Shown: positions 25,247-62,146 of the stretch, one piece after another
Position numbering within the stretch: position 1 is the first letter of the stretch
Layout: each line of letters opens with the position of its first letter
Assembly: GCA_028691955.1 (NCBI GenBank)
Contig: JAQUYH010000005.1
Location: 14,777 to 78,776 of the forward strand
Direction of reading: 5' to 3'
Origin: Bacilli bacterium
Lineage (GTDB): Bacteria > Bacillota_I > Bacilli_A > RF39 > UBA660
Length of the DNA: 64,000 bases
The notes under the pieces: model-generated
The model's database searches: none
What the model was told of the DNA's origin: nothing
Seen by the model: the letters and a program-made list of their open reading frames with translations, nothing else
Made by a program: the position numbers and the translations under genes

Positions 25247-25597
25247 ATGAAAAAAACAAACATTTTGAAAGAAAATAAAGATTTTAAAAGAATAATGAAT
25301 TTGAATAATTGCTATAAAAACAAATATTATCTCATATTTATAGAAAAAAATGAGGTTATTGTTAACCATCATTTTGGAATATCAGTAAGCAAAAAATTAG
25401 GTAACGCCGTAGTAAGAAATAAGTTAAAACGACAAATTAAATCTATAATTGATGAAAAAACCTATCAAAATAACTTTAATTGTATTATAATATTAAGGAA
25501 AGACATATTAAACGCAAGTTTTGAAGAAAAAAAAGAAAACTTATATAATTTGTTGATGAAGGTGAATATAATAAAAGGAGATAAAAATGAAGAATAA
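25247..25597 (+). CDS. rnpA: ribonuclease P protein component
   Basis: 116 aa and basic, with an FGISVSKKLGNAVVRNKLKRQIK block. It lies downstream of rpmH. Confidence 0.9.
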   Translation: MKKTNILKENKDFKRIMNLNNCYKNKYYLIFIEKNEVIVNHHFGISVSKKLGNAVVRNKLKRQIKSIIDEKTYQNNFNCIIILRKDILNASFEEKKENLYNLLMKVNIIKGDKNEE

Positions 25598-26597
25598 CAT
25601 CAAAAAAATTACCATCTTTTTATTGTTAATATTTTTAACTACAGGATGTACAACTCAATTAAAAAATGTAGACAATGAACTTGTAAAAAATGAAACAACA
25701 GGGCAGACATTAGTAAAAAATATATTATGTCAGCCGGAAAGTGAAGAAACCATTCAAAAATACAATGAGACATTAGAATCGGCTAAAGTGAAATTACAAG
25801 AAGAACTAGATAATAATGAAATTACTCAAATAGAATATAATCAAAAATCAGATAATTTAGTTGATATTTCATCACTTCCAAAATGTAGTGAGTTTAATCT
25901 AACTGATGGAGGATATGAGGGATTATGGATGACCATATTCGTAAAACCATTAGCGTGGCTTATATTAAAAGTAGGAGAGCTTGTAGGAAATTATGGCTTA
26001 TCAATACTAATTATAACTTTACTTATTAGATTATGCTTATTTCCAATAACTCAAAAAACAGCGAAACAATCTGAACAAATGAAGTTAGCAAAGCCTGAGC
26101 TAGATAAAATAGAAAAAAAATATACCGGAAAAACAGACCAACAAAGTGTAATGGCCAAAAGCCAAGAGACAATGCTAGTATATAAGAATTTTAAAATTAA
26201 TCCAGTATCAGGATGTATATTTGCAGTAATACAAATTCCATTATTTTTTGCTTTTTATGAAGCATTAAATAGACTTCCAGCCATATTTGAGGAAAGATTT
26301 TTAGGAATACAACTTGGAACAACAGCTTTAACAGGAATTACATCAGGAAAATATTATTATATAATCATTGTTATTCTAGTAATAGCCGCAACATATTTCT
26401 CAATGAAATTAAATAAAACAGCAACAATAGATTCAGAGCAAGCTAAAACAATGAAAATGATGACAAACATAATGATTATAATGATCTCAATAGCTTCATT
26501 TACAATATCAACAGGTATAACTCTTTACTGGATAATGAACAACTTATTTACTATAGTTCAAAATTTAATAGTAAAAAGGAGGAAAGAAAATGCTTAA
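25587..26597 (+). CDS. yidC: membrane protein insertase YidC/SpoIIIJ (lipoprotein type)
   Basis: LTTGC lipobox, a 60-kDa-IMP core (LIRLCLFPITQKTAKQSEQMKLAKPELDKI) and multiple TM segments. Confidence 0.9.
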   Translation: MKNNIKKITIFLLLIFLTTGCTTQLKNVDNELVKNETTGQTLVKNILCQPESEETIQKYNETLESAKVKLQEELDNNEITQIEYNQKSDNLVDISSLPKCSEFNLTDGGYEGLWMTIFVKPLAWLILKVGELVGNYGLSILIITLLIRLCLFPITQKTAKQSEQMKLAKPELDKIEKKYTGKTDQQSVMAKSQETMLVYKNFKINPVSGCIFAVIQIPLFFAFYEALNRLPAIFEERFLGIQLGTTALTGITSGKYYYIIIVILVIAATYFSMKLNKTATIDSEQAKTMKMMTNIMIIMISIASFTISTGITLYWIMNNLFTIVQNLIVKRRKENA

Positions 26598-27207
26598 AAC
26601 ATATAAATATGAAGGAAAAAATGCTGGTGAGTGTTTAAACAAGTGCTTAGATGAATTAAAAGTAACAGAAGAAGATATAACCTTTTTAGAAAATGTTACT
26701 GAGGCTAAGTTATTTAAAGCCAGAAAAACAGAAATAGATGTAGTCCTAAAGCAAGACATTAAATCCGCAATAAAAGAATTTTTGAAAGAAATCTGTAAAA
26801 AAATGAATATAGAAGCCAACTTTGAAATAACAGAAAAAGAATCAGGCTATAATATTATAATTATTTCTGAAAGTGATAATAGTATCTTGATAGGTAAAGA
26901 CGGAAGAACATTAAATGCTTTGCAACTATTATTAAAACAATACATAAATAATGGAAACAAATTTAATATAAGAGTTAATGTTGACGTTTCAAATTACAAA
27001 TCAAGAAAAATGAAGAATATTGAATACGAAGTAAAACGAGCAGCAAAAGAAGTAATCAGCACGAAAATAGAAGTAAAATTAGATCCTATGAACTCATATG
27101 AAAGAAGATTGGTTCATACAATAATAGGCGAATTTCCAGAACTTGAAACAGAAAGTTATGGAGAGGGATTAGAAAGACATGTCGTTATAAGATACAAGAA
27201 GGGTTAA
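26590..27207 (+). CDS. jag: RNA-binding protein Jag/KhpB (KH + R3H domains)
   Basis: IGKDGRTLNALQ KH block and C-terminal R3H (MNSYERRLVHTIIGEFPELETES.GEG..R.VVI). Confidence 0.9.
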   Translation: MLKTYKYEGKNAGECLNKCLDELKVTEEDITFLENVTEAKLFKARKTEIDVVLKQDIKSAIKEFLKEICKKMNIEANFEITEKESGYNIIIISESDNSILIGKDGRTLNALQLLLKQYINNGNKFNIRVNVDVSNYKSRKMKNIEYEVKRAAKEVISTKIEVKLDPMNSYERRLVHTIIGEFPELETESYGEGLERHVVIRYKKG

Positions 27208-27273
27208 TCCTTTCTTTTTTATTGACTAATTATATAAAAAGTTATAAAATCAATTAGACAAAGGAGGGCTAAT

Positions 27274-28617
27274 ATGGAAGACACAATAGCAGCAATATCA
27301 ACAGCTTTAGGAATAGGCGCTATTTCAATTATCAGAATTAGTGGAGAAGAAGCATTATCAATAGTAAATAAAGTATTCTCAGGTAAAGATTTAACGAAAG
27401 TTCCAACACATACTATTCACTATGGTTTTATTATAGATAAAAAAGAAAAAATAGATGAAGTATTAGTCAGTGTTATGAAATCTCCTAAAACATTTACAAA
27501 AGAAAATATAGTAGAAATTAATTGCCATGGAGGTATAGCTGCAACAAATAAAGTGTTAGAATTACTAATTTTAAATGGATGCAGATTAGCCGAACCAGGA
27601 GAATTTACAAAAAGAGCTTTTTTAAATGGAAGAATTGATTTAATAGAATCATCTGCCATAATGGATTTAATTGAAGCAAAGACAGAATTGGCAAGAAAAC
27701 TATCAATCAATAATTTAATTGGTAACGTATCAAATATGATAAAAGAAATAAGAAAAAATATATTAAGTCTTTTAGCTAATATAGAAGTAAATATAGATTA
27801 TCCAGAATATGAAGATATAGAAGAAATTACAGTAGAAAAAATAAAAAAAGAACTTCCTAATATAAAAAAAAGACTAGAACAAGTAGTAAAAGAAAGTGCT
27901 TCCGGGAAAATTATAAAAGAAGGCATAAACACAATAATATTAGGTAAGCCCAATGTTGGTAAAAGTAGCTTGCTTAATTGTCTATTAAATGAAGAAAAAG
28001 CCATAGTTACAGATATTGCTGGAACAACAAGAGATGTTGTAGAAGGAATAGTAAATATTGATGGAATATTACTTAAAATCAGCGACACTGCTGGAATTAG
28101 GAAGACCCAAAATAAAATAGAAAAAATAGGTGTAGAAAAAAGTTTAAGCTTAATAGAAAAAGCCGATTTAATCCTTTTTGTCTTAAATAATAATGAGACA
28201 TTAACTGAAGAAGATAAAGATATTTTAAAAAGAATTAAAAATAAAAGACATATTATAATCATTAATAAAATAGACTTAGAGTCAAAACTTGAACTAGAGG
28301 AAGAAAACATAATAAGAATAAGCGCAAAAGAAAATATTAACATTACACTATTAAAAGAAAAAATAAAAGAACTTTTTAACTTAAATAAAATAGAAACAAA
28401 GGATTTAAATTATTTAACAAATGCCGAATCTTTAGCTAAAGTTAAAAAATGTATTAACAAAATAGAAGAAATAGAAGAAAAGATAGATTCAACATTAATA
28501 GATATGTTAGAAATAGACCTAAAAGAAATTTGGAACTTACTAGGTGAAGTGACAGGTGAAATATATCAAGAAGAACTAATTGATAATCTATTTAAACAAT
28601 TTTGTTTAGGAAAATAG
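27274..28617 (+). CDS. mnmE: tRNA modification GTPase MnmE
   Basis: DTIAAISTALG..AISIIRISG, GKPNVGKSSLLN and DTAGIR motifs, with the C-terminal FCLGK. Confidence 0.95.
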   Translation: MEDTIAAISTALGIGAISIIRISGEEALSIVNKVFSGKDLTKVPTHTIHYGFIIDKKEKIDEVLVSVMKSPKTFTKENIVEINCHGGIAATNKVLELLILNGCRLAEPGEFTKRAFLNGRIDLIESSAIMDLIEAKTELARKLSINNLIGNVSNMIKEIRKNILSLLANIEVNIDYPEYEDIEEITVEKIKKELPNIKKRLEQVVKESASGKIIKEGINTIILGKPNVGKSSLLNCLLNEEKAIVTDIAGTTRDVVEGIVNIDGILLKISDTAGIRKTQNKIEKIGVEKSLSLIEKADLILFVLNNNETLTEEDKDILKRIKNKRHIIIINKIDLESKLELEEENIIRISAKENINITLLKEKIKELFNLNKIETKDLNYLTNAESLAKVKKCINKIEEIEEKIDSTLIDMLEIDLKEIWNLLGEVTGEIYQEELIDNLFKQFCLGK

Positions 28618-28625
28618 GTGAAAAA

Positions 28626-30494
28626 ATGAAAGAATATGAAGTTATAGTAGTTGGAGGTGGACATGCAGGCTGTGAGGCAGCGTTAGCAACAGCAAGAAAA
28701 GGGCATAAAACACTACTTGTAACAGGAAGTATAAAGAATATTGCAACAATGCCTTGCAATCCATCAATTGGAGGATCAGCTAAAGGTATTGTTGTTAGGG
28801 AAATAGATGTTTTAGGTGGAGAAATGGGAAATAATACCGATAAAACCCATATTCAAATAAAAATGTTAAATAATAAAAAGGGTCCTGCTGTTCAAGCCCT
28901 TAGAGCACAAGCTGATAAAACAACTTATCCACAGGAAATGTGGAAAACTTTACAAAATACTCTAAATTTAGAAACTATTGAAGGGATGGTAGAAGATTTA
29001 ATAGTAGAAGAAAATACAATTAGAGGTGTAATTTTATCTGATAATACTGAGATCAGAAGTCAAATTGTCATTCTAACAACAGGAACATATATGAAAGCAG
29101 ATATTCTTGTGGGAAGCTCTAGAACTAGAAGTGGTCCACACGGAGAAGCACCGAGTAACTATTTAAGTGATAATTTAGCAAAATTAGGATTTAGAATAAT
29201 AAGGTTAAAAACAGGAACTCCTCAAAGAATAGATAAAGAAAGTATTGATTTTTCTAAGACTAAAGAAGAATATGGAGATAATAAATACTATACATTTAGC
29301 TTTGATAATGAACCAATGTATAAAATAGAGGATCAAGTTCCGTGTTACTTAATCTACACCACACCACTAACGCATGAAATAATAAGAAAAAATCTACATA
29401 AAGCAAGTATATATGGGGGCTTAGATGATATTACTGGTGTTGGGCCAAGATATTGTCCTTCAATAGAAGATAAAATAGTTAGATTTAGTGACAAAGAAAG
29501 ACATCAACTATTTATAGAGCCAGAAAGTTTATATTATAATGAAATGTATTTACAAGGTTTTTCAACAAGCATGCCTCATGAAGTACAAGATGAAATGGTT
29601 CATAGCTTACCAGGATTAGAAAATGCCAAAATACTTAAATATGCATATGCTATAGAATATGATGCTATTTATCCAACTCAATTAAAAAACACTCTAGAAA
29701 CAAAGATAATCAAAAATCTATATACTGCTGGTCAAATCAATGGTACTAGCGGTTATGAAGAAGCAGCTTGTCAAGGATTAATGGCTGGAATCAATGCAGC
29801 ATTAAATTTAGAAAAAAAAGAACCATTAGTTCTAAGAAGAGATGAAGCATATATTGGTGTTTTGATAGATGATCTAGTAACAAAGGGGGTAAGAGATCCC
29901 TATAGATTACTAACGTCACGTGCAGAATATCGTTTATTATTAAGACATGATAATGCAGATCTTAGATTAAAAGAATATGGATATAAAGTTGGATTAATAA
30001 GTAATGAAAGATATCAAAAGTTTTTGACAAAAAAGCAAAAAATAGAAAAATTAGAAACAAATTTAAAAAGTTACAGGCTAACCCCTAGCAGACAAGTTAA
30101 TAACTTTTTAAGCCAAATTAATACTAATGAAATAACAGATATAACAACTTTATATGATCTACTAAAAAGACAAGAAATAAGAATACTCGATTTTAAAAAT
30201 TTAATAGATATAGATTACCCAGAAGATGTCATCGAAGAAGTAGAAATAATGAGCAAATATGAAGGTTACATTAAGAAGGAATTGAAAGAAGCTGAAAAGA
30301 TGAGAAGCTTAGAAAACAAACAAATACCAGATGATATTGATTACAAAAAAGTGCAAAACTTAGCAAGTGAGGCCAAACAAAAACTATCTGAAGTTAGACC
30401 AACTTCAATTGGGCAAGCAATAAGAATAAGTGGCGTAAATCCTAGTGATATATCAATATTATCAATATATCTAAAAAGGGAGTATCATGGATAA
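28626..30494 (+). CDS. mnmG: tRNA uridine 5-carboxymethylaminomethyl modification enzyme MnmG
   Basis: YEVIVVGGGHAGCEAALA, MPCNPSIGG and GPRYCPSIEDK motifs. AGGTGA RBS before the ATG at 28626. Confidence 0.95.
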   Translation: MKEYEVIVVGGGHAGCEAALATARKGHKTLLVTGSIKNIATMPCNPSIGGSAKGIVVREIDVLGGEMGNNTDKTHIQIKMLNNKKGPAVQALRAQADKTTYPQEMWKTLQNTLNLETIEGMVEDLIVEENTIRGVILSDNTEIRSQIVILTTGTYMKADILVGSSRTRSGPHGEAPSNYLSDNLAKLGFRIIRLKTGTPQRIDKESIDFSKTKEEYGDNKYYTFSFDNEPMYKIEDQVPCYLIYTTPLTHEIIRKNLHKASIYGGLDDITGVGPRYCPSIEDKIVRFSDKERHQLFIEPESLYYNEMYLQGFSTSMPHEVQDEMVHSLPGLENAKILKYAYAIEYDAIYPTQLKNTLETKIIKNLYTAGQINGTSGYEEAACQGLMAGINAALNLEKKEPLVLRRDEAYIGVLIDDLVTKGVRDPYRLLTSRAEYRLLLRHDNADLRLKEYGYKVGLISNERYQKFLTKKQKIEKLETNLKSYRLTPSRQVNNFLSQINTNEITDITTLYDLLKRQEIRILDFKNLIDIDYPEDVIEEVEIMSKYEGYIKKELKEAEKMRSLENKQIPDDIDYKKVQNLASEAKQKLSEVRPTSIGQAIRISGVNPSDISILSIYLKREYHG

Positions 30495-31188
30495 AAAAGA
30501 ATTTACAAAAGAATTATTAAAACTTGGCGTAAAAGCAACAGAAGATCAGATGAATAAGTTAGAAATATATTATAAAACTTTAGTCGAGTGGAATGAAAAA
30601 ATAAATTTAACCAATATAACAGAAGAAACCGATGTCTATCTAAAACACTTTTATGACAGCTTAACACTAATAAAAGCAGTTGATTTAAATCAAGTTCAAA
30701 ATTTTTGCGATGTAGGCACAGGTGCTGGTTTTCCAGGAGTGGTTATAAAAATATTTTTTCCAAACATAGAAGTAACTCTAGTAGATTCACTAGGAAAGAG
30801 AATTACTTTTTTAGATGAATTAGTGAAATCACTCGGTTTAAAAGGAATTAAAATTTATAATCAACGAGCTGAAGATTTCTCACAGAATAACAGAGAAGAA
30901 TACGATGTTGTTACAGCAAGAGCAGTGATGCACCTTAGAAAGCTAATAGAAATTTGTGCTCCTTTGGTAAAGGTTGGTGGATACCTTATTCCTTTAAAAG
31001 GAGGCATAGATGAACTACAAGAAAGTAAAAATGCCGTCTTAAAATTAAATCTACAATTAGAAGAAAAAATAGAATTTAATTTACCTATTGAGAAAAGTAA
31101 CCGAATAATTTATAGATTTATTAAAACAAGTATAAGTAGCAAAATATTTCCCAGAAAATATTCTGACATTCTGAAAAAGCCTTTATAA
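30487..31188 (+). CDS. rsmG: 16S rRNA (guanine527-N7)-methyltransferase
   Basis: NLT.I....VYLKHFYDSL and DVGTGAGFPG motifs. It follows mnmG. Confidence 0.92.
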   Translation: MDKKEFTKELLKLGVKATEDQMNKLEIYYKTLVEWNEKINLTNITEETDVYLKHFYDSLTLIKAVDLNQVQNFCDVGTGAGFPGVVIKIFFPNIEVTLVDSLGKRITFLDELVKSLGLKGIKIYNQRAEDFSQNNREEYDVVTARAVMHLRKLIEICAPLVKVGGYLIPLKGGIDELQESKNAVLKLNLQLEEKIEFNLPIEKSNRIIYRFIKTSISSKIFPRKYSDILKKPL

Positions 31189-31211
31189 ATAGGCTTTTTT
31201 TAAATCAAAAC

Positions 31212-31296: not shown

Positions 31297-33027
31297 ATGA
31301 ATGAAAATTTAGAGAATAAACAAGTTAGGATGCTAAAACTTGGCGAAATATTACCTAATAGATTTCAACCAAGAATTCATTTTGATGAACAAGCGTTAAA
31401 TGAATTATCAGCTTCAATTAGACAGCACGGGGTAATTCAACCAATAATAGTAAGACCTTTAGGCGATAAATATGAAATAATAGCTGGAGAGAGAAGATAT
31501 AAAGCCTCAACTTTAGCGAACGTAGAAGAAATTCCAGCAATCGTAGTTGATTTAAATGATAAAGAGAGTTCAGAGCTTGCCCTTATAGAAAACGTTCAAA
31601 GACAAGATCTAACCCCAATAGAGGAAGCTATATCATATAAAAAGATTCTTTCTATGGGTTATCTAAAACAAGAAGAATTAGCCAGTAGACTAGGCAAAAC
31701 CCAATCAACAATAGCAAACAAGTTAAGATTACTAAACTTAAGTCCAGATGTTCAAGACGCTTTAATGGATGGAAAGATATCTGAACGCCATGCTAGATCA
31801 TTGTTAAAGCTAAAAGACTTAGCCAAACAAGATTTGTTATTAGATAGAATAATAAAAGAAAGATTAACAGTCAGAAAGACTGATGAGGAAATAAATAATA
31901 TGATAGATAGTAAAGATGTAGAAGTTCTAGATTTCAACAAAGAAGTAGCAAGTCCAGAACAAATTAAAGATCCATTAAAACAATTTGATAGTCTATATAA
32001 TATACCAACAACAGCTATAGTGGAAGATAGTCAAGATGAAAATCTTCCTAAAATACCCAATATAACAGCAGCAAAAAGCATATTTGACGAAGCAAATGAG
32101 GGAATTCCAACTGCTGAAGTAAAACCTATAGAGCCAATTCAGACAAGTTTTGCTACCGTAGAAGAAGCAAGGCCTATTGAACCAGTGAGTACCATTGCAC
32201 AAGAAGAAAATCCTGGGTTTACTGATATTAATAAAATAGAGCAAAATGCATCTGATATAAATGTTGAACCAAGAAAAATATCATTAGAAGAACTACTAAA
32301 ATCCCCTGGAAAAGTTGTTTCAACAGCTGCAACTGAAGTGCAACCACCAATTCAGCCTGTAGTAGCAGAAGAAAAGGCGACTGAGCCAGAAGATGATTCC
32401 TTATTTAAAACAGGTAAATTTTTTACAATGATGGATGAAGGAAAAGAGCAATTCGTCCCAACACCATCACCAGTGACAACTCCAGAATCAACTATTTTTG
32501 AACCAAATTCATTAGATAATAAAGGCTTTAATGTGGCTCCAGAAAGTCAATTAGCCGATCTTTTGAAAGATACTCCAAAGGTAAATCCAGTCCCTCTAGA
32601 AAAAGTAGATGAAGGATTTGATATGCCTGTAACAGAGATAGAAGAAGATGAAGGAGAAACAATTCCAACTGCCCCACTACAAAATGAAGATGAGGATTTA
32701 GATAAAACAATGGTTTTTGATTCAGTACCATCCAATATTTCTAATTTATCGGAATTCAAAATGCCTCCGCTTGACGATTTTGCAGCACCAACACCAGAAG
32801 TAAGTCCAGCTCCTGCTCCAGCAGAGTATTCACCAGTTTATGAAGATGAAGAAAAACCAGAAGCAGTAGACAATAATAAATATGGAGCAGCCGATTTAAG
32901 AACAGTAATTAATACAATCCGTAATTGTGCAGCAACAATTGAAAAATATGGATATGTATTAGACACAGAAGAGTTTGACTTTGAGGATATGTATCAAGTA
33001 ATATTTAAAGTTCAAAAAAAGAAGTAA
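31297..33027 (+). CDS. noc: Noc-type ParB-family protein with a long internal low-complexity insertion
   Basis: The N-terminal half has ILPNRFQPR, GVIQPIIVR and GERRYKAS. Its HTH region TQSTIANKLRLLNL..VQDALMDGKISERHARSL matches Noc (GQSTIANKLRLLKL...ITERHARAL) rather than Spo0J. The last roughly 50 aa (DLRTVINTIRNCAATIEKYGYVLDTEEFDFEDMYQVIFKV) match the Noc C-terminal domain. An in-frame TAG lies immediately upstream of the ATG. Confidence 0.8.
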   Translation: MNENLENKQVRMLKLGEILPNRFQPRIHFDEQALNELSASIRQHGVIQPIIVRPLGDKYEIIAGERRYKASTLANVEEIPAIVVDLNDKESSELALIENVQRQDLTPIEEAISYKKILSMGYLKQEELASRLGKTQSTIANKLRLLNLSPDVQDALMDGKISERHARSLLKLKDLAKQDLLLDRIIKERLTVRKTDEEINNMIDSKDVEVLDFNKEVASPEQIKDPLKQFDSLYNIPTTAIVEDSQDENLPKIPNITAAKSIFDEANEGIPTAEVKPIEPIQTSFATVEEARPIEPVSTIAQEENPGFTDINKIEQNASDINVEPRKISLEELLKSPGKVVSTAATEVQPPIQPVVAEEKATEPEDDSLFKTGKFFTMMDEGKEQFVPTPSPVTTPESTIFEPNSLDNKGFNVAPESQLADLLKDTPKVNPVPLEKVDEGFDMPVTEIEEDEGETIPTAPLQNEDEDLDKTMVFDSVPSNISNLSEFKMPPLDDFAAPTPEVSPAPAPAEYSPVYEDEEKPEAVDNNKYGAADLRTVINTIRNCAATIEKYGYVLDTEEFDFEDMYQVIFKVQKKK

Positions 33028-34450: not shown

Positions 34451-36389
34451 TTTAGTTTCAAAATATAAGCCATCTGGAGACCAACCAAAAGCAATAAATG
34501 AATTACTTGAAGGCCTTCAAAAAAACTATAAGCAACAAGTTCTATTAGGGGCAACAGGTACTGGAAAAACCTTTACTATAGCAAATATTATTCAAGAATT
34601 AAATAAACCAACTCTAGTCTTAGCACATAACAAAACACTAGCTGGCCAATTATATGCAGAATTAAAAGAATTATTTCCCAATAATCACGTTTGCTATTTT
34701 GTATCATACTATGACTATTACCAGCCAGAAGCATACGTTGCTAAAACAGATACATACATAGAGAAAGATGCATCAATAAATGATGAAATAGATGAGCTTA
34801 GACACTATGCCACATCTTCTCTTTTAAAATACGATGATGTTATTGTTGTAGCCTCTGTTTCATGCATATATGGTATAGGGGAAATAGAAGAATACGAAAA
34901 TAAGATGTTAACAATATCAACTGGTGATAAAGTAAAAAGAAACCAAATTCTAGAAAAATTAGTAGAAATGCTATATGAAAGAAATGACATTGACTTTAAA
35001 AGAGGAACATTTAGAGCTAAAGGCGATATACTAGAAATAATTCCAATAAATGAGCATTCAAAAGGGATAAGAATTGCTTTTTTTGGAGATGAGGTAGAAA
35101 AAATATCTGAATTTGATGTTTTAACAGGAGCAGTACTGCAAAATAAAAAATCAATTAGTATCTTCCCAGCAAGTCATTTTGTAACAAGCGAAAGCAAATT
35201 AAAAATAGCAATTGAAAACATAAAGAAAGAATTAGAAGATAGGTTAAAATATTTTAAAGAAAACAATAAACTTTTAGAACTTCAAAGATTACAAGAAAGA
35301 ACAAACTATGATTTAGAAATGCTTTCTGAAACCGGCTTTTGTAGAGGAGTTGAAAACTATTCTAGACATATTGCTCTAAAGAAAGCAGGAGAAACGCCAA
35401 CAACCCTAATTGACTTTTTTAAAAAAGACTTTTTAATGGTTATTGATGAATCACATGTTACAATTCCACAAGTAAGAGGGATGTACAATGGAGATCAAGC
35501 AAGAAAGAATGTGCTAGTTGAATATGGCTTTAGACTACCTAGCGCTAAAGATAATAGGCCACTTAAATTTGAAGAGTTTCAGCAAAAAATAGACAAAGTA
35601 ATTTATGTATCTGCAACTCCTGGAGACTATGAACTAGAAAACAACAATCGCATAGTAGAACAAATAATCAGACCAACAGGGCTATTAGATCCAACAATAA
35701 CCGTTAAACCAAGCAAGAATCAAATAGATGATTTAATAGAAGAGATAAATAATACAATAAGTAAAAACGAAAGAATCCTTATAACAACACTAACAATAAG
35801 AATGGCAGAAGAACTTACCGCATATTTAAAAAGAATAGACATAAAAGTAGCTTATCTTCATAATGAAGTAAAAACCTTAGATAGATTAAAAATAATCAAA
35901 GACTTAAGAATGGGTAAATATGATGTCCTAGTAGGAATAAACCTATTAAGAGAAGGAATAGACATACCCGAAGTATCTCTAATAGCTATCATGGATGCTG
36001 ATAAACAAGGATTTCTAAGAAGTGCTAGAAGCCTGATACAAACAATAGGAAGAGCTGCAAGAAATGCAAACGGGAGAGTTATAATGTATGCGGACACAAT
36101 AAGCGACTCAATGAAAGAAGCTATAGAAGAAACTAAAAGAAGAAGAGAAATACAAAACAAATACAACGAAGAAAATCACATAGAGCCAAAAACTATCATA
36201 AAGGAAATTAAAGATGTCATTACTAACCAAGAAGATGATAAAGAGTCTAAAACAAAATTAAGCAAACAAGAAAGAAAGCAGTTAATAGTTAATGTCGAAA
36301 ACGAAATGAAAAAAGCAGCAGAGCAGCTAGATTTTGAAAGAGCAATGGAACTAAGAGATATTCTATATGAATTAAGGGCAGAAAAATGA
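34443..36389 (+). CDS. uvrB: excinuclease ABC subunit B
   Basis: [26 protein letters not shown] and the C-terminal UVR motif ([11 protein letters not shown]). Confidence 0.97.
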
Positions 36390-37213
36390 GATTTAAAAAA
36401 ATATATATTGAAATAACAAACAAATGTAATAAAAATTGTTCCTTCTGTTCCGAAGATAGTCTTCCTAAAAGAGAAATGACCATAGACGAATTTAAACATA
36501 TTTTAAAAGAAATAAAAGAATATACTAATTACATATATTTGCACGTAAAAGGAGAACCATTAATTCATTCTAAAATAGAAGACATAATTAAATTATGTGA
36601 TAAATATAACATAAAAGTAAACCTTACTACTAACGGAACATATTTAAATAAATGCAAAGAAGTCCTATCTTGCAAAATAATAAATCAAATAAACATATCA
36701 TTGCAAACGGCAAGCGATGAAGAATTAAAATCTATCATAGAAGCAACAGAGTATATTTTAAAGAACAGCAGAGCTAATGTTGTTTATAGATTTTGGGCAT
36801 TGAAAGATAATCAATTGTCAAAAAATAACCTTCATCTGCTAAAAAATATTGGTAATTTCTATAATCAGAATTTAATTGATAAAGAATCTTGCAATTATAA
36901 AGTAAAAGAACGATTATACCTAAATAAAGAAAAACAATTCATTTGGCCAAATGAAGAAGTACTGGAGAAAAAAGAAAGCTTCTGTAATGGCTTAAAAACC
37001 CATATAGCAATTCTATCAAACGGAACAGTTGTTCCTTGTTGTTTGGATAGCTCTGGAAATATACCTTTGGGGAATATTTTTACCGAAAGTTTATCCAATA
37101 TATTACAAAAAGAAATAACCATAAACATAATTCAACACTTCAAAAGCAATAAATGTTACAGTCCTTTTTGTAAAAAGTGTGGATATAGACTTAATATGTC
37201 AAAAATGATATAA
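36386..37213 (+). CDS. radical SAM enzyme with C-terminal SPASM/twitch-like Cys cluster, substrate unknown
   Basis: CNKNCSFC (CxxxCxxC) at residues 14-21 and a C-terminal CNGL...VVPCCLD...[15 protein letters not shown] start/stop overlap with uvrB. Confidence 0.75.
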
Positions 37214-37220
37214 TAGATAT

Positions 37221-37631
37221 ATGAAAAAAGGAAAAAATTTGATGTATAAAATATTAGATTATTTAGTTCACACAATAGGTTATGCCCTTGTTTTAATAGT
37301 TGCTTCCTTGATATTTCCCAAAACATTTTATATAGATAATAGTTATTACGGATTGTGGCCTTTTATAGCAGCTATCATTATAAGTATTTTAAACAAAACC
37401 ATAAAACCAATATTAGTTTGGCTTACCCTACCATTAACTGCTATTACTTTAGGACTATTTTATCCAGTTATTAATGTTTTAATATTAAACATTGTAGAAT
37501 TTGTTCTAGATAAGCATTTTATTATAAATGGAATTTTTATGAGTATAGTAGTAGCCATAGTAATATCTATACTGAACTATTTTTTAAAGGAATTTATTAT
37601 AAGACCAATTACAGGAGGAAAATATGAATAG
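37221..37631 (+). CDS. YvlD/DUF360 (holin 4_2 superfamily) membrane protein
   Basis: ILNKTIKPILVWLTLPLTAITLGLFYPVINVL matches the YvlD core. It has four TM segments and precedes lgt. Confidence 0.7.
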   Translation: MKKGKNLMYKILDYLVHTIGYALVLIVASLIFPKTFYIDNSYYGLWPFIAAIIISILNKTIKPILVWLTLPLTAITLGLFYPVINVLILNIVEFVLDKHFIINGIFMSIVVAIVISILNYFLKEFIIRPITGGKYE

Positions 37632-43322: not shown

Positions 43323-43351
43323 AGCAGTTATCATATAGATAACTGCTTTTT
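43323..43351 (+). terminator. intrinsic terminator after eno
   Basis: Hairpin AGCAGTTATC-atata-GATAACTGCT plus a T-run. Confidence 0.8.
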
Positions 43352-43352
43352 G

Positions 43353-43381
43353 TTGAAAAAATGAAATATTAGTGTTATAAT
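43353..43381 (+). promoter_or_regulatory. near-consensus promoter with extended -10 for the DGR target gene
   Basis: TTGAAA (43353-43358), a 17-nt spacer ending in TGt, then TATAAT (43376-43381). GGGAGG RBS before the ATG at 43426. Confidence 0.65.
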
Positions 43382-43425
43382 CAAGATAATAAAAATAATA
43401 ATATAGTTTATGGGAGGATATTAAT

Positions 43426-45396
43426 ATGAAAAAAGGTTTTACTTTAATAGAACTTTTAGCAGTAATTGTAATATTAGCTATAATAGCTGTTATTGCAACT
43501 CCAATAATATTAGGAGTAATAGAAGAAACTAGAGCAAAAGCTTTTGATGTAGAATCTTCTAATATAGAAAAAGCGGCTGAATATTACTTAACTAAAGACT
43601 TAAGAGTGGAAGATATTCCAGAATATACAGAGTATTATATTAAAGTAAGTGATTTAGTGGGTTTCTTAGATCCTATAACAGATGATATAAAAGATAATTA
43701 TGTTGTAGTTAAAAAGAGTGGTAATAGTATAAGTTATTATTACACAGGACGTGATGATAATCCTTATACTTATTCTGATAATGAAACATTAAAAGAGATT
43801 ATAGAAAGTAATATTGGTTCGCATATAGCAAACAATGTAGTAGTAAATGGAACTACTGTTAATAAAGTAATAGGTACTAAAGCAGAAAAGAAAACAATTA
43901 AAAACTGGGTATACTATTCGGGACAATTATGGCAAGTATTAGAAACAACTGGTGATTATGTTAAACTAATAACAGCTAATTCTATAACTTCTATAGCTTA
44001 TGGCTCTAATTCAACCTGGAGTACATCATGGGTAAGAAAATGGTTAAATGAAATAGATAGTGAATCAGATGAAGATGGGATATACTATAATAATTTATCA
44101 AGAAGTGATTTATTATTAGATGGCAATTTCTGTTTAGATGAACCAACAGATATAACAGAGGAATCTTTTACTATAGGAACAGAAACAAGAAACAAAGTAA
44201 CATCATTTACGAAAATAAGTACATGCTCAAGTATATCAACCGATAAGATAGGATTAATGACATTTGAAGACTATGTATATGCATTAGATGGAACAGATGG
44301 TATAACAGGAGCTTTAGGAGGATCATTTATTGATGAAGATGAACTAGAGTGGACCATGACTAAATATACAGTAGGTGGAGTAACCAACAAGACATGGCAC
44401 ACTTATTACCTAAGTCCATCACATATAGAACATGGTTGGAATGGAACAACTGATTATGGAAAAGGCGTACGTCCTGTAATTTATTTATCAAGTGATTTAA
44501 TAGTAGAAAATAATAGTGATTCTGATTATGGACAAATAACTAATCCATATAGATTAGTAGGAGAACAAACAGCTGAAGAAAGTGATTTACTAAATACTGT
44601 GACAATAGGAAGTTATGTATATATAAGTGAAGAAAACAACCCAAACACAACAACAACAGAAACAGTAACAGACAATATTAGTTATACATATGATAAGACT
44701 AAAGTAAGATATAGAGTAATATCAATAAATGATAATGGAAGCATAAAACTACAAAGAGCCGATGTGTTAAGAAACTTGTCTTCAACAATAGCCATAAACT
44801 CAAATACATATATACCGTTTTATTACTATAACAATGGAGAAAACTCAACAAGTTGTGCTTACTTAAATAGTACATGGTATACCGGAGGATGTACAAATCA
44901 TAATTACTTTCAACCAACCCAAGGAAGCGGTGCTTATGCTTATACTGAAAGTGAAAATATAGGATACTTCTTAAATAATACAACTAATGGATATTATACA
45001 TGGCTCTCTGATGATGTAAAAGCAAACTTAGTAAATTATAATTGGAACTTAAATGTAAGCTCCAATGGTTATGATTATACAAGAAGTTTATTTAATACTG
45101 ATACTAGTGGAATATATCCATCTAGAATAAGTGATGGGATAGTTTCATCTTATGTAGGACTACCTTCATGGGGAGACATGTTTGCAGCAAATGATATAAA
45201 TACAAGTTATTGGCTTATAAACAGATGGTCAGGCTCATCTTCCAACGTCTCGTATGTGCACTCCGACGGTAATTCCAGCAGCATCTGCGCGTCTTATATC
45301 TGGTTTGGTGCGCGCCCAGTTATCAGTCTTACATCTAACACTCGTATAACAAGCGGAGAAGGTACAACTGATAGTCCATATATATTAAATTTTTGA
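43426..45396 (+). CDS. DGR target protein: prepilin-leader (type IV pilin-like) protein with two tandem lectin-like modules, C-terminal variable region
   Basis: The N-terminus MKKG/FTLIELLAVIVILAIIAVIATP is a prepilin cleavage/N-methylation motif with Glu at +5. The modules end in GKGVRPVIYLSS (about 44464) and FGARPVISLTS (VR). Confidence 0.88.
   Translation: MKKGFTLIELLAVIVILAIIAVIATPIILGVIEETRAKAFDVESSNIEKAAEYYLTKDLRVEDIPEYTEYYIKVSDLVGFLDPITDDIKDNYVVVKKSGNSISYYYTGRDDNPYTYSDNETLKEIIESNIGSHIANNVVVNGTTVNKVIGTKAEKKTIKNWVYYSGQLWQVLETTGDYVKLITANSITSIAYGSNSTWSTSWVRKWLNEIDSESDEDGIYYNNLSRSDLLLDGNFCLDEPTDITEESFTIGTETRNKVTSFTKISTCSSISTDKIGLMTFEDYVYALDGTDGITGALGGSFIDEDELEWTMTKYTVGGVTNKTWHTYYLSPSHIEHGWNGTTDYGKGVRPVIYLSSDLIVENNSDSDYGQITNPYRLVGEQTAEESDLLNTVTIGSYVYISEENNPNTTTTETVTDNISYTYDKTKVRYRVISINDNGSIKLQRADVLRNLSSTIAINSNTYIPFYYYNNGENSTSCAYLNSTWYTGGCTNHNYFQPTQGSGAYAYTESENIGYFLNNTTNGYYTWLSDDVKANLVNYNWNLNVSSNGYDYTRSLFNTDTSGIYPSRISDGIVSSYVGLPSWGDMFAANDINTSYWLINRWSGSSSNVSYVHSDGNSSSICASYIWFGARPVISLTSNTRITSGEGTTDSPYILNF
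45233..45319 (+). repeat. DGR variable repeat (VR)
   Basis: 75/87 identity to 47531-47617. All 12 differences lie opposite TR adenines. It encodes SSSNVSYVHSDGNSSSICASYIWFGARP. Confidence 0.95.
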
Positions 45397-45544: not shown

Positions 45545-45973
45545 TTGAAATCTATAGATATATACTTTGAAATCAAAAAAAAATATGCCGATTACATAAT
45601 CATGTACAAAATGGGAAACTTTTACAACGTCTTTGGAGATGACAGTCATATTATAGGAGCTCTTTTGGGATATAAAATAAATAGTAACAATAATGTTTTA
45701 AAAGTAGGATTTCCACTAATATCTCAAGAAAAAGTTTTAAAAGTATTAAACAAAGAAAAAATCAATTACATAATTTTGGAAAAAGAAGATGGAATAATTA
45801 ATATCAAAATAAAAAAAAGATATATCACAAACTCATATAACTATTTTAGTAGAGATACACAGTCATTTTGTGAAATTAAAAATAGAATAGAAAAAATAAA
45901 CAGTAAATTAAATTCCAAAATTAATGAAAAAAATATTGATAATATATTAAAACAAATTGAGAACATAATATGA
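45545..45973 (+). CDS. small MutS-domain-I-like protein (DGR accessory ORF)
   Basis: YFEIKKKYADYIIMYKMGNFYNVFGDDSHIIGALLGYKI...KVGFPLISQEKVLKVLNKEKINYIILEK parallels the MutS mismatch-binding domain (Y.EIK..Y.D.IL.FR.GDFYE.F..DA......L.I.LT....AGVP.H....Y...L...G..VAI.EQ). It has a TTG start with an AAAGGAAA RBS, and its stop overlaps the avd start (ATGA). Confidence 0.65.
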   Translation: MKSIDIYFEIKKKYADYIIMYKMGNFYNVFGDDSHIIGALLGYKINSNNNVLKVGFPLISQEKVLKVLNKEKINYIILEKEDGIINIKIKKRYITNSYNYFSRDTQSFCEIKNRIEKINSKLNSKINEKNIDNILKQIENII

Positions 45974-46314
45974 AAGATAATCTAATAATAATAACTAGAA
46001 TCAAAAAAACAATACTAAAACTAGAAAAAATAATTGAAAATTTCAGTAGAACAGAGAATGTTTTAAAAGATAATATCAAAATAACAATGTATGAATTTTT
46101 AAAAAACGCTTATAAAGCAAATATTTCTAAAGATAGTACTAGATTAAATTATCAAAAAGAAATGATTGTAAATATTAAGATGTTAGATTTTTACATAAAC
46201 TGCTCGTACAACAAAAAAATGATAAGTCCTAAACAATACAATTTAATGGGGCAAAACTTTTTAGAAATTTTTTCAATGATTCAAGCATGGGTAAAAAGTG
46301 AAAAGACAAAATAA
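45970..46314 (+). CDS. avd: Avd-like four-helix-bundle accessory variability determinant
   Basis: 114 aa, basic and predicted all-helical, ending ..SPKQYNLMGQNFLEIFSMIQAWVKSEK like the Avd/S23-IVS family. It sits immediately 5' of the RT and overlaps it by 17 nt. Confidence 0.75.
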   Translation: MKDNLIIITRIKKTILKLEKIIENFSRTENVLKDNIKITMYEFLKNAYKANISKDSTRLNYQKEMIVNIKMLDFYINCSYNKKMISPKQYNLMGQNFLEIFSMIQAWVKSEKTK

Positions 46315-47515
46315 TTTATATGAAAAGATCGTTGATACAAGAAAAATATTAGATATTTACAATCGCCAAATAAAAAAATCTACTAAAAATAAAGAGAAAA
46401 TAGAACGATTTGAACAGTATTTAATGATAAATATTGCTAAAATAGAAACAATGTTAAAAAATAAAAATGTTTCATTTAATAAGTACAAAATATTTTTAAT
46501 AAGAGATCCTAAGTATAGAGTAATAATGAGTCAAAGTGTAGGAGATAAAATTATCAATCACTTAGTAGCAAAATATTTCCTTTTAGATATTTTTGAAAAA
46601 ATTTTAATAGATGAAAATGTTGCCACAAGAAAGGGAAAGGGCACAACTTATGGAATAAACCTTATAAAAAAATATATAAATGATTTAAAGAAGCAAAAAA
46701 AGCCAATATACTATTTAAAGTGCGATGTTAGCAAATATTTTTACAACATTGATCACAATACATTAAAAAAAATAATAAGCAAGAAAATTAAAGATAAAAG
46801 CGCAATAGAATTAATAAATAAAATAATAGATACTTTTTCAAGTAAATATGTAAATAAAGAAGTAAATGATGTATGTAATAAAGAAATAGAGTATGTAAAT
46901 AGTCTAAATATTATGGCAATAGAAAAACAGCAAAAAATCAAAGATTTAGAAAAAATTAAGGCTACTATAAAAGATAAAAAAGGCATACCAATTGGGGATA
47001 TGACAAGTCAAGCATTTGCTATAATATATTTAAATGAATTAGATCATTACATAAAAGAAAATTTGAAAATTAAATACTATGTACGTTATATGGATGATTT
47101 AATAATATTAAATAATAATAAAGAAAAATTAAAAGAAGATTTAAATAAAGTTAAAGAAAAAATAGAAGATGAGTATTTATTAGAATTAAATAATAAAACA
47201 CAAATAGGCATGTTAAAAAACGGCTTAGACTGTTTAGGATTTAGATTTATATTATCTAAAGACAAAATATACTTAAAAGTTCGTACTAAAACTAAGAAAA
47301 GGTTTAAAAAGAAAGTAAGAAAACTTTCTAATTTAATAATAAAAGGTAAAATATCAGAAAAGTCATATTATCAATTGTTAGCAAGTTATAAAGGTCATCT
47401 TATTAATGGAAATACATATAAATTATATTCTAGTGTAGCAAATAAAGGTAATGATAAAGTCAATTTAGGTGAAAACGTTTATATTGATAAATTTGGAGAA
47501 ATAATTAAGGGATAA
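46298..47515 (+). CDS. DGR-type reverse transcriptase
   Basis: RT motifs PKYRVIMSQSVGDKIINHLV (1/2), YYLKCDVSKYFYNIDH (A), GIPIGDMTSQAFAIIYLNELD (B, containing the DGR-typical IGxxxSQ), YVRYMDDLIIL (C, YMDD) and LDCLGFRF. GTG start. Confidence 0.92.
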   Translation: MKRQNNLYEKIVDTRKILDIYNRQIKKSTKNKEKIERFEQYLMINIAKIETMLKNKNVSFNKYKIFLIRDPKYRVIMSQSVGDKIINHLVAKYFLLDIFEKILIDENVATRKGKGTTYGINLIKKYINDLKKQKKPIYYLKCDVSKYFYNIDHNTLKKIISKKIKDKSAIELINKIIDTFSSKYVNKEVNDVCNKEIEYVNSLNIMAIEKQQKIKDLEKIKATIKDKKGIPIGDMTSQAFAIIYLNELDHYIKENLKIKYYVRYMDDLIILNNNKEKLKEDLNKVKEKIEDEYLLELNNKTQIGMLKNGLDCLGFRFILSKDKIYLKVRTKTKKRFKKKVRKLSNLIIKGKISEKSYYQLLASYKGHLINGNTYKLYSSVANKGNDKVNLGENVYIDKFGEIIKG

Positions 47516-47530: not shown

Positions 47531-47617
47531 GCTCATCTTCCAACGTCTCGAATGTGAACAACAACGGTAATTCCAACAGCAACTACGCGTCTAATAACTG
47601 GAATGGTGCGCGCCCAG
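47531..47617 (+). repeat. DGR template repeat (TR)
   Basis: Starts 16 nt after the RT stop. In the VR frame it reads SSSNVSNVNNNGNSNSNYASNNWNGARP, with 11 AAY Asn codons. It holds 26 adenines, 12 of which are substituted in VR. Confidence 0.95.
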
Positions 47618-47843
47618 CTTTGATAAAAACTAACATTTTTAGGATCATGGTTCTAATTTATAAAAGCTTATCAAAACAAGTTTTAATCCCTCTCAAATCG
47701 AGAAAAATAAAGTATGTGAAAAATAATGCTAGTAAATTTATGAAAGTTTTATTTTTGAAAAGCAGATACATTAAGAAAGTTTTACTTCAAGTAAATCTTT
47801 TTTTATTTGTCCAAAAAGTATATAATATAAAAAGGAGGCAAAT

Positions 47844-60391: not shown

Positions 60392-60486
60392 CACACCGGT
60401 TGTGCTATTTTAATTAAATAATATAGATTTATATTTAAATATATGGTAAAATAAACATTAGAATGGGATAGAAAATGGTGATAAAA

Positions 60487-61272
60487 ATGGGTAAAATAAT
60501 CGCACTTGTTAATCAAAAAGGGGGTGTAGGTAAGACTACTTCCAGCATTAATTTAGCCGCATCTTTAGGCTTCCTAAAAAAGAAAGTGCTATTAGTAGAT
60601 TTAGATCCACAAGGCAATACTACAACGGGAACCGGTGTTGATAAATTAGACTTGAATAAATGCATATATGATTTACTTATTGGCGAGGCTGAAGTAGATG
60701 AGGTTATAAGAAAAACAAAATTTAAAAACCTATATGTTTTACCTGCTACAATTAGACTAGCTGGAGCTGATATAGAATTGATGGAAAGAAGTAGGACTAT
60801 AGAAGGTTTTACAAAAAATGGTCAGCTAAAAAAGAATCTAGACTTAGTAAAAGATAGTTTTGATTATATTATAATAGATTGTCCACCATCACTTGGAATG
60901 CTAACAACAAATGCCTTAACGGCAGCCGATTCCGTTTTAATACCAGTTCAATGTGAATTTTTCGCACTAGAAGGAATAATGCAACTTTTAAATACAATTA
61001 TGATGGCTCAAAAAACACTAAATACCAACTTAGATATAGAAGGTGTTTTACTTACAATGCTTGATAATAGAACAAACTTAGGATTAGAGGTTGTAGAAGA
61101 AATAAAAAGCTACTTTAAAGAAAGAGTGTACGACACAATAATCCCAAGACTGGTTAGACTGTCAGAAGCACCAAGTCATGGCAAACCAATTCTATATTAT
61201 GATGAGAATAGTCGAGGTTCAGAAGCTTATATAAATTTAGCTAAGGAAGTGATTGAGAGAAATGGAAAATAA
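60487..61272 (+). CDS. soj: chromosome partitioning ATPase ParA/Soj
   Basis: The deviant Walker A motif NQKGGVGKTT, IIIDCPPSLG and SEAPSHGKPI. Confidence 0.95.
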   Translation: MGKIIALVNQKGGVGKTTSSINLAASLGFLKKKVLLVDLDPQGNTTTGTGVDKLDLNKCIYDLLIGEAEVDEVIRKTKFKNLYVLPATIRLAGADIELMERSRTIEGFTKNGQLKKNLDLVKDSFDYIIIDCPPSLGMLTTNALTAADSVLIPVQCEFFALEGIMQLLNTIMMAQKTLNTNLDIEGVLLTMLDNRTNLGLEVVEEIKSYFKERVYDTIIPRLVRLSEAPSHGKPILYYDENSRGSEAYINLAKEVIERNGK

Positions 61273-62146
61273 AAAAAGAGCCCTTGGGCGAGGATTAGAA
61301 CAGTTATTTAATAGCGATAACCTAGATTTAGGAGCTATTGAAAAACAAATCTATGAAAATGTATCAAACGAAGAAGTAATTAATATCAAATTAGAAGATC
61401 TAAGACCTAATCCATATCAACCAAGAAAAGTCTTTAAAGATTCAGCTCTTCAAGAACTAGCTGATTCAATTAAGCAGCATGGTGTTTTTCAACCAATAAT
61501 AGTAAAAAAAAGTATTAAAGGTTATGAAATAATTGCTGGTGAAAGAAGAGTTAGAGCATCCAAAATAGCCGGCCTTGAGAAGATACCTGCTATTGTTAAA
61601 GGATTTACTGATGAGCAAATGATGGAAATAGCTCTTTTAGAGAACCTTCAAAGAGAAAATTTAAACTCAATAGAAGAAGCCGAAGCTTATAAAAAAATGC
61701 TAGATAAATTAGAAATAACTCAAGAAGAACTTGCCAAAAAAGTTGGTAAAAGTCGTAGCCACATTACCAATATCATAGGATTACTTAGATTACCAAGAGA
61801 AATTCAAGACTTAATTGAAGAAGAAAAAATATCTATGGGTCATGCTAGGGTACTTTCTAAATTAGAAGATGATAGCAAAGTTATAGAAATAGCTAAAAAG
61901 ATTGTTTCCAATAATTTACCTGTTAGAGAAGTAGAGAAACTAGTAGACAGCTCAGAATTTGAAAGAAAAATAAAAATTGAAAGAAAAAAAAGGGAAACTA
62001 GTTCAGATTTTAAATATGTAGAAGACTTAATGACTGAAAAATTAGATTCAAAAGTAAGAATAAAAGAACACCAAGTTATTATTTCTTTTACCAATACTGC
62101 AGACTTAAAGAGAATACTAGAAATTTTAGACATAAAGGAAGATTAA
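61262..62146 (+). CDS. spo0J: chromosome partitioning protein ParB/Spo0J
   Basis: ALGRGL, NPYQPRK, GERRVRAS and the Spo0J-type HTH KSRSHITNIIGLLRLP...ISMGHARVL. Confidence 0.93.
   Translation: MENKKRALGRGLEQLFNSDNLDLGAIEKQIYENVSNEEVINIKLEDLRPNPYQPRKVFKDSALQELADSIKQHGVFQPIIVKKSIKGYEIIAGERRVRASKIAGLEKIPAIVKGFTDEQMMEIALLENLQRENLNSIEEAEAYKKMLDKLEITQEELAKKVGKSRSHITNIIGLLRLPREIQDLIEEEKISMGHARVLSKLEDDSKVIEIAKKIVSNNLPVREVEKLVDSSEFERKIKIERKKRETSSDFKYVEDLMTEKLDSKVRIKEHQVIISFTNTADLKRILEILDIKED

Follow-up and report, generated by a model that had tools for sequence, protein, structure and literature searches.

Diversity-generating retroelements (DGRs) are known to have targets on phage tails, among lipoproteins and, recently, at the tips of Bacteroides type V pili. 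Treponema denticola TvpA and Legionella LdtA are displayed as lipoproteins, the latter with a Tat/lipobox signal. In phages of gut Firmicutes, DUF6273 is a C-type-lectin (CLec)-like DGR target domain, and its C-terminal variable repeat (VR) forms a surface beta-hairpin (PMC10743442, PMC11792537). Modular pilins are widespread as well, with 264 architectures reported in PMC8179133. We analyzed a stretch of 64,000 nucleotides (hereafter the window) from a Bacilli bacterium (contig JAQUYH010000005.1, positions 14,777 to 78,776), in which a DGR cassette accompanies a target gene at 43426-45396 (+). This gene encodes a trimodular, prepilin-type protein of 656 residues with the N-terminus MKKGFTLIELLAVIVILAIIAVIATP. 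A previous reading of the window, made from its letters alone (the original prediction), had described the protein as a hypervariable lectin-like domain mounted on a pilin or pseudopilin stem.

We judge it probable that the gene product is a type IV pilin of the modular kind, that the DGR re-randomizes its distal lectin-like module, and that the protein is displayed on a type IV filament, presumably at its tip. Each half of this arrangement is known, be it DGRs with MSL and Avd genes, DUF6273/CLec targets or modular pilins; their combination has not been characterized before. The original prediction knew of no characterized DGR target of this architecture, and our literature search likewise found none on a type IV pilin stem, nor any paper joining the terms "diversity-generating retroelement" and "prepilin". 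Pilin and N_methyl go unmentioned in the text and supplements of Roux et al. 2021. The only trace that we found is a single line in PMC11661182 that lists a "GspG-type pilin" domain among rare VR-bearing domains. At the level of sequence and predicted structure the combination at this locus is solid.

The start of the target gene can be fixed closely. A terminator-like hairpin of the enolase gene (43323-43347) precedes a promoter-like site at 43353-43381 (+), which reads TTGAAA-17-(TG)TATAAT with a near-consensus extended -10, and a ribosome-binding site (RBS), GGGAGGA (43412-43418, +), lies 7 nt upstream of the ATG; the last two were assigned by consensus match. The gene thus appears to be a separate transcription unit, and because of the enolase terminator, the promoter-like site and the RBS, the four-residue leader MKKG is well defined. 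The junction reads MKKG/FTLIE, with Gly at -1, Phe at +1 and Glu at +5 of the mature protein. Pfam N_methyl (PF07963) matches with 28 bits over the full-length protein, or 33 bits over residues 1-60 alone (cut-off 21.2), and NCBIfam TIGR02532 (IV_pilin_GFxxxE) with 32.7 bits (cut-off 16.3), so that the protein has the class III signal peptide as defined by PF07963, TIGR02532 and IPR012902. A six-frame scan of all 64 kb for the motif G[FMYILV][TS]..E.. returned a single site, this leader. Across 62 homologs of 40-84% identity, F5, L7 and E9 never vary; conservation is at least 90% for G4, P26 (mature Pro22) and the hydrophobic stretch. The set formed by Gly-1, Phe+1, Glu+5 and Pro22 serves peptidase recognition together with the packing and melting of alpha-1 in type IV filaments; Glu+5 and Pro22 matter to filament assembly, not to mere anchoring. 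These observations support a bona fide class III (prepilin) signal at the N-terminus. The leader and hydrophobic alpha-1 seen in the original prediction were therefore borne out, as was its proposed profile search of residues 1-60.

The rest of the stem is pilin-like too. The pilin module spans residues 1-119 (43426-43782, +), with the cleavage site before F5, an alpha-1 helix at 7-57 and strands at 69-73, 92-98 and 101-106. AlphaFold2 (AF2), run on an alignment of 62 sequences, gave a model with a mean pLDDT of 91.1 and a pTM of 0.88, in which a 51-residue helix (7-57) and a small beta-sheet are followed by two globular modules (approximately residues 120-365 and 380-656). A canonical pilin alpha-1 has roughly 53 residues. 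The long alpha-1 and beta-sheet head of type IV pilins are thus both present in the AF2 prediction and in the profile alignment. The family profile matched 20 solved type IV pilins or pseudopilins, with alignments that begin at mature residue 1 and extend from position 6 to approximately 100. The top PDB match of the stem profile was PilE1 of the Gram-positive Streptococcus sanguinis (8pfb_G, E 5.7e-10, profile positions 6-94), and Geobacter PilA-N, MshA and Thermus PilA4/PilA5 came next. Another of the matched entries is 8qqj_J (E 4.4e-6). The equivalog NCBIfam models remained below their cut-offs (GspG, 26.7 vs 88.85; ComGD, 17.4 vs 70; ComGC, 16.9 vs 75), and their matches were limited to the N-terminal 25-55 residues of the target. 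Because these scores fall so far short, the protein is best classed, from its profile matches, as a type IV pilin outside the ComG (ComGC-GG) and GspG families. An N-terminal pilin module joined to extra modules that are not pilus-specific is what Raynaud et al. (2021) call a modular pilin (PMC8179133), and the target has this form.

An uncleaved signal anchor that merely resembles a prepilin leader would instead make the target a type II membrane protein. The hydrophobic stretch would be enough to anchor it, and no prepilin peptidase was found in any sequence examined. However, the G-F-T-L-I-E motif stands at the right distance from the start and is invariant over the 62 homologs, and small pilins of canonical size in the same genomes share it. 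Moreover, the homology to solved pilins continues for approximately 90 residues past the motif, and the curated models were passed. A mere anchor would also have no need of the conserved set of Gly-1, Phe+1, Glu+5 and Pro22. Because the motif is conserved and the pilin homology is present, we consider a plain signal anchor very unlikely.

The cassette downstream of the target contains an RT (reverse transcriptase) with an intact catalytic motif, Avd and MSL genes, and an adenine-biased pair of template repeat (TR) and VR, the latter at the 3' end of the target; these are the defining parts of a DGR. MSL (45545-45973, +) is a small MutS domain I protein of 142 residues (PF01624, E 8.5e-11). Avd (45970-46314, +; 114 residues) passes the bAvd model PF22296 with 43 bits against 40 and matches NCBIfam NF033474 at E 3.3e-13, under the curated cut-off of the latter (49.8 vs 80). 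The RT (46298-47515, +; 405 residues) matches RVT_1 at E 2.3e-18 and carries IGDMTSQ (residue 232) and YMDD (residue 264). An MSL and Avd layout of this kind corresponds to architecture D of Wu et al. 2018 (PMC5758913). The TR (47531-47617, +) is 87 nt long with 26 adenines, and its mutable codons comprise 11 AAY codons, one AGC and one TAC. Its design is such that no substitution yields a stop, and approximately 1.4e14 amino-acid combinations can be encoded.

The VR (45233-45319, +) covers codons 603-632, which in the model form a predicted beta-hairpin (607-611 and 617-621) and the loop that follows it, up to strand 632-635. Between VR and TR there are 12 mismatches in 87 nt, and 12 of 12 fall at TR adenines (P = 5.4e-8 for chance placement). 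Ten of the 13 mutable codons are recoded in the present VR relative to the TR, in line with the ten variable residues counted in the original prediction. The GC content of TR and VR is 49-55%, compared with 28% for the genome. At their 3' ends the two share the GC-rich TGGTGCGCGCCCAG (45306-45319 in the VR) and then diverge, which looks like a pair of initiation-of-mutagenic-homing elements (IMH/IMH*). No stable hairpin was found 3' of the VR (z = +1.1). On the TR side, a non-coding stretch of approximately 130 nt (47618-47745, +) is conserved in seven DGR loci. It includes a putative long-range stem of 8 bp, invariant in sequence, in which UUUGAUAA (47619-47626) would pair with UUAUCAAA (47668-47675) around a variable segment, and no covariation was detected in this stem across the seven loci. 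We regard the stretch as a candidate spacer or priming region of the DGR RNA.

Two lectin-like modules follow the stem. The proximal module A (residues 120-365; 43783-44520, +) is DUF6273-like, or enlarged C-type-lectin-like, and it is invariant; no TR match was found in it. It ends in GKGVRPVIYLSS (residues 345-356; nt 44458-44493). The distal module B (residues 380-656; 44563-45393, +) is likewise DUF6273-like or C-type-lectin-like and contains the VR, and FGARPVISLTS lies at nt 45304-45336. Diversification is thus confined to the distal module, as the original prediction had it. That the two modules are paralogous was also predicted, and hhalign of residues 120-365 against 366-656, with 62 homologs, gave a probability of 84% and an E value of 7e-6 over 182 columns. 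BLASTP of one module against the other was not significant, so that the paralogy is visible at the profile level alone. The C-terminal motif G.RPVI.L.S is indeed shared by both modules, as had been noticed, at positions slightly different from those first given (44464-44499 and 45305-45340). A Trp-rich signature had been ascribed to each module; WVRKWLNE is confined to module A, and its counterpart in module B is IGYFLNN.

The affinity of these modules to lectin-like folds emerges from homologs and from structure. Pfam DUF6273 (PF19789) matches module A in some homologs and module B in others, and the homologs P0007, P0014 and P0074 pass this model with 27-33 bits against 23.5. In a Foldseek search with the model of module B (pLDDT 91.3), the one significant PDB match was 9qa6, the N-terminal domain (NTD) of the Thomasclavelia ramosa IgA peptidase (IgAse), at E 1.5e-10, TMq 0.51 and 18% identity. 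In the depositors' description, this NTD has a core resembling C-type lectins to which further segments are added, so that it reaches double the normal size (PMC12237041). Among predicted viral structures, module B had 13 BFVD matches at E<=1e-3, several of them annotated as DUF6273. The placement of the VR hairpin in the secondary structure of the model agrees with the arrangement reported for DUF6273 tentaclins. Taken from the model, these relations support a lectin-like distal module of the enlarged CTLD (C-type lectin-like domain) or DUF6273 type. Structure prediction of the distal domain, which had been suggested as a check, thus did recover a relation to CTLD-like folds through 9qa6. Of the earlier assignment to a C-type-lectin/FGE-like variable domain, the CTLD part holds through 9qa6 and the DUF6273 phage proteins; the FGE part received no significant match.

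Relatives of the target are numerous. A family search over 5.8 billion proteins returned at least 1,584 matches at E<=0.001; the best 120 of these are nearly all full-length, at 615-690 aa, and begin with the same N_methyl segment; Pfam DUF6273 is found in some of them. An exhaustive search gave 236 clusters (50% identity) at E<=1e-30. Scanning one genome per GTDB species yielded 40 loci, whose record titles name uncultured Bacilli, Bacillota or Erysipelotrichaceae metagenome-assembled genomes (MAGs) with two exceptions, namely one Muribaculaceae-labelled MAG (5 loci) and one 25%-identical match in Candidatus Faecisoma. Labels such as Hadza, RUG and CHK suggest that the relatives come from human and animal guts. 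The family is often multiplied within a genome: CALVXR has no fewer than 12 loci, and CAKPKL no fewer than 8. On one metagenome scaffold there are at least 7 paralogs, arranged as two tandem arrays and a solo copy (L001:8037-13908 and 18089-21950; L048:1-4522 and 10001-11953), and one of the arrays directly follows enolase, like the window gene. No RT was found within the 41 kb read of this scaffold.

A target-MSL-Avd-RT cassette lies beside an ortholog in six relatives (L005, L009, L013, L015, L030 and L040), and their RTs are orthologous at 50-63% identity. TR/VR pairs were scored in four of the six, and the mismatches fall at adenines in 8 of 8 cases in L005, 7 of 7 in L009, 16 of 17 in L013 and 15 of 16 in L030; none was scored in L015 or L040. 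The TR itself lies between target and MSL in L015 (3621-3836) and L040 (373-548), and after the RT in the window and the four others. The cassette has thus been rearranged within one lineage.

Natural variants show the VR changing in relatives. The 12 positions of the window VR that are templated by Asn or Tyr codons (AAY, TAC) rank within the top 40 of 656 alignment columns by variability in the 62 homologs. For a comparison at closer range, we used members of 90%-identity clusters that came from different samples. In the L005-type cluster, in which the DGR is adjacent, five full-length variants of 669 aa differ at 12 residues in the VR and at 0 of approximately 641 residues elsewhere. All 12 of these variable residues derive from adenine-containing TR codons, and the VR codons whose template is free of adenine are all invariant. 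The L009-type cluster, also with an adjacent DGR, varies at 11 residues in the VR and 70 elsewhere. Three paralog clusters with no adjacent DGR vary at 0-1 residues in the VR and 17-64 elsewhere. The pairing of DGR and pilin is therefore conserved and, as the VR-only variation of the L005-type ortholog shows, in use in nature.

A single TR might be thought to feed all the paralogs of a genome. We rejected this for those genomes, where the seven SHAF22 scaffold paralogs differ throughout the VR-equivalent DNA, synonymous sites included. The static VRs of the paralog clusters lacking an adjacent DGR speak against it as well. The two closest homologs of the window protein, P0002/MDD3187293.1 (83%) and P0003/MDD3187228.1 (69%), have accessions 65 apart and are therefore from one MAG. 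A second paralog is probably present elsewhere in the genome of the window.

No type IV filament assembly genes had been noticed in the window, and we found no T2SSE ATPase, T2SSF platform or A24 peptidase there, either in Pfam/NCBIfam scans of approximately 45 of its open reading frames (ORFs) or by tblastn and phmmer with E. coli GspE/HofB/GspF/HofC/GspO. Looking for such machinery elsewhere had been recommended in the original prediction, and the loci of relatives gave a divided answer: a PilB/GspE-class ATPase and small prepilins are present in L017 and L044, and a peptidase and a platform were not found. The ATPase of L017 (441 aa) scores 427 bits with Pfam T2SSE, 504 with GspE, 489 with PilB, 270 with ComGA and 191 with PilT. 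At L017:4721-6683 it lies 4 kb from a paralog and is divergent from a 178-aa prepilin (KKG/FMLIE). In L044 (8827-13371), which is from the same metagenome as the paralog arrays, two prepilins of 169 and 178 aa come first, followed by the ATPase and then a convergent family member of 653 aa. Stand-alone GspE/PilB-class ATPases of this kind (441-452 aa) are 73-94% conserved across many Bacilli MAGs and are paired divergently with one or two small prepilins; no platform protein or peptidase adjoins them. In L046, a more distant spore-former, the same ATPase stands beside holA and a Flg_new protein. In two further cases, the surroundings of family members on long contigs were inspected and held no such genes. 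A 402-aa protein upstream of the paralogs in L017 (8684-9892; no Pfam match) was considered, for its size, as a PilC candidate and rejected. It has a signal peptide, a thioredoxin-like CxxC part and a multi-pass membrane C-terminal half, and from its sequence we read it as possibly DsbD/CcdA-like.

The relatives encode other proteins with the same start. Prepilins of 117-122 aa have an alpha-1N nearly identical to that of the large proteins of the same genome. Other modular prepilins share the leader and alpha-1N and continue into DUF285/LRR (Mycoplasma BspA-like) or Flg_new (InlB B-repeat) domains, or into sequence with no Pfam match (L004:3699-5198, L018:19193-20701, L008:3274-5118, L029:14334-15893 and 18843-19976, L010:1380-2243). 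By these similarities the relatives would hold a whole repertoire of modular pilins.

These same genomes lend some color to an account in which the pilin-type N-terminus is processed and anchored and no long pilus is made, the protein acting as a pseudopilin-like membrane receptor or in a short surface assembly akin to the "bindosome" of Sulfolobus, whose ligand-binding proteins have signal peptides of class III. The DGR would in that case vary a receptor on the cell surface and not the tip of a filament. Each relative genome has many (up to 12 or more) large proteins with a prepilin leader and diverse binding modules, and these are scattered among housekeeping genes with no pilus operon. A platform protein, a peptidase and a retraction ATPase were not seen in the window or the loci of relatives, and two bulky modules (approximately 540 aa) would be hard to fit in a filament body. 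On the other hand, a PilB/GspE-class ATPase and small (117-178 aa) prepilins adjoin family members, and Glu+5 and Pro22 are conserved. Tip-located modular pilins also have a precedent (PMC8179133). We consider such a receptor rather unlikely, though far from negligible, and continue to favor a modular pilin built into a type IV filament.

Several results weigh against that preference. An A24 peptidase and a PilC/GspF platform were found neither in the window nor in approximately 650 kb (636-712 kb) of relatives, searched as 46-48 loci with tblastn/phmmer, distant E. coli queries and a GxGD[..]K scan, in the neighborhoods of family members only. The window protein has no Pfam DUF6273 match, whole or by sub-regions, even at E<=10; residues 61-150, 151-370 and 371-656 gave nothing at all in Pfam at that threshold. 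Foldseek with the full-length and module-B models did not significantly match Mtd, TvpA or FGE, and canonical C-type lectins reached E ~3 at best. Most paralogs in relatives are static and have no linked DGR. The 90% cluster of the window protein has a single member, so that diversification here is deduced from one VR/TR pair and from the relatives. Finally, a second paralog in the MAG of L009 (L032:186-2171) has 13 of 13 mismatches with the L009 TR at adenines, and we considered it as an active target in trans. We do not claim this, because the VR of L032 is unchanged across five samples and the same as in some DGR-linked copies; L032 is possibly a duplicated or converted former target.

The setting of the cassette is chromosomal. 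It sits between enolase and tatD, with only housekeeping genes around it and no phage structural genes, and the order of enolase followed by a family member recurs in a relative. The window contains the chromosomal origin of replication (23000-31200). The sign of the GC skew flips at approximately 24-25 kb; large ORFs upstream of this point are all on the - strand, and beyond it the + strand carries rnpA, yidC, jag, mnmE, mnmG, rsmG and a noc/parB-like gene. The DGR cassette lies approximately 20 kb from the origin. The cassette could in principle be a prophage remnant and its target a phage receptor-binding protein. Module B does resemble phage DUF6273 proteins, and DUF6273 DGR targets, which are typical of phages of gut Firmicutes, have been reported from gut phages including those of Faecalibacterium (PMC11792537, PMC10743442). 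However, the enolase/tatD setting near the origin is devoid of phage structural genes, its enolase-family member synteny is found again in a relative, and a pilin stem takes the place of a tail-fiber anchor. Because of this chromosomal housekeeping context we give a prophage origin hardly any weight. Phages and cells may well have traded this module fold at an earlier time, but the gene as it now stands is cellular.

The ComK homolog noticed in the original prediction is confirmed near the origin region, at 21533-22024 (-), by PF06338 (E 1.5e-41), with no NCBIfam match at E<=1e-5. Because it is present, the organism may have a competence regulon and hence a Com-type pseudopilus.

Put together, the locus suggests the following mechanism. 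The TR would be copied into cDNA with errors at adenines only, and the mutagenized cDNA would replace the VR, recoding up to 13 codons in the hairpin and loop and leaving the scaffold unchanged; the one VR/TR pair of the window and the relatives together make it plausible that this goes on at present in this genome. A prepilin peptidase would cut after Gly4, with the hydrophobic alpha-1N as the membrane anchor, and a type IV filament machinery with a PilB/GspE-class ATPase would then incorporate the protein. Its location would most likely be the tip of a pilus or of a short pseudopilus, since a filament body has no room for two such bulky modules, an argument made for S. sanguinis PilB (PMC8179133). 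The cell would in this way present a ligand-binding surface that can be re-randomized, which in relatives would stand beside a large repertoire of fixed paralogs and other modular pilins. A bolder picture, in which uncultured low-GC gut Bacilli carry, at the tip of a type IV filament driven by ATP, an adhesin with approximately 1e14 possible DGR variants, beside fixed paralogous tips and other modular pilins, we offer tentatively, as a possibility on which we would not yet insist.

A Noc/ParB-like protein at 31297-33027 (+) has 576 aa, about twice the usual size, and Noc/ParB models cover its residues 6-207, leaving the C-terminal 370 aa; a canonical soj/parB pair lies at 60475-62146. At 36386-37631 (+), a radical SAM/SPASM protein (275 aa) and then a holin-family protein with four transmembrane segments (136 aa) are directly upstream of lgt. 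Rfam models at gathering score mark a SAM riboswitch (856-941, -), an L31 ribosomal-protein leader (3274-3304, -) and a small SRP RNA (15689-15785, -).

If the bolder picture above is true, it would be the first link of DGR hypervariation to type IV filament biology; the binding specificity of such a filament could be re-randomized within a population, which could explain attachment to changing host glycans or partner cells. The locus would add a new display scaffold to those known for DGR targets. It also suggests that type IV pili may gain functional versatility in a further way, by the programmed hypervariation of an adhesin at the tip. By our reading of the labels the family has so far been met only in uncultured Bacilli from human and animal guts, and the locus gives a tangible starting point for learning how these little-known organisms adhere to hosts, food particles or other microbes.

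Among the closest described systems are S. sanguinis PilB (vWA) and PilC (ConA-like lectin), which combine, like the target, a small class III pilin module, a short linker and one or more bulky ligand-binding modules in a monoderm host (PMC8179133). For PilB, a tip location was proposed from packing, and the major pilin of the same species, PilE1, is the best PDB sequence match of the target stem. The target differs in having two tandem CTLD/DUF6273-type modules, which are not among the module types named in the passages of that survey that were consulted. It differs further in that a dedicated DGR hypermutates its distal module, no pil operon is nearby, and its incorporation into a filament is putative.

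On the retroelement side, TvpA and LdtA likewise belong to chromosomal DGRs that have Avd, accompanied in Legionella by MSL, and that use AAY codons. Their VR, too, lies at the very C-terminal end of a domain of the C-type-lectin type, in a surface-displayed ligand-binding protein. In the target, a type IV pilin stem would be the anchor and the fold is of the enlarged DUF6273/IgAse-NTD kind. The phage DUF6273 targets, tentaclins and those of a Faecalibacterium prophage (PMC10743442, PMC11792537), share the domain family, the CLec-like fold and the C-terminal VR hairpin. They are virion- or tail-associated receptor-binding proteins, whereas the module of the target is duplicated and sits on a cellular pilin stem. 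The IgA peptidase of T. ramosa, a related gut Firmicute, has an enlarged CTLD like module B (9qa6). Its bearer, in contrast, is a sortase-anchored metallopeptidase, whose NTD is not hypervariable and is dispensable for activity (PMC12237041). The concept of a hypervariable pilus adhesin is shared by the Bacteroides type V pilus DGRs (bioRxiv 10.1101/2024.11.15.621889), which, as proposed for the target, vary a pilus subunit at its adhesive end in a gut commensal. However, type V pili form by strand exchange after lipoprotein processing and have neither evolution nor mechanism in common with type IV filaments. Type IV pili run on ATP and can be dynamic, and the host here belongs, unlike Bacteroides, to low-GC Bacilli of a Mycoplasmatota-like kind.

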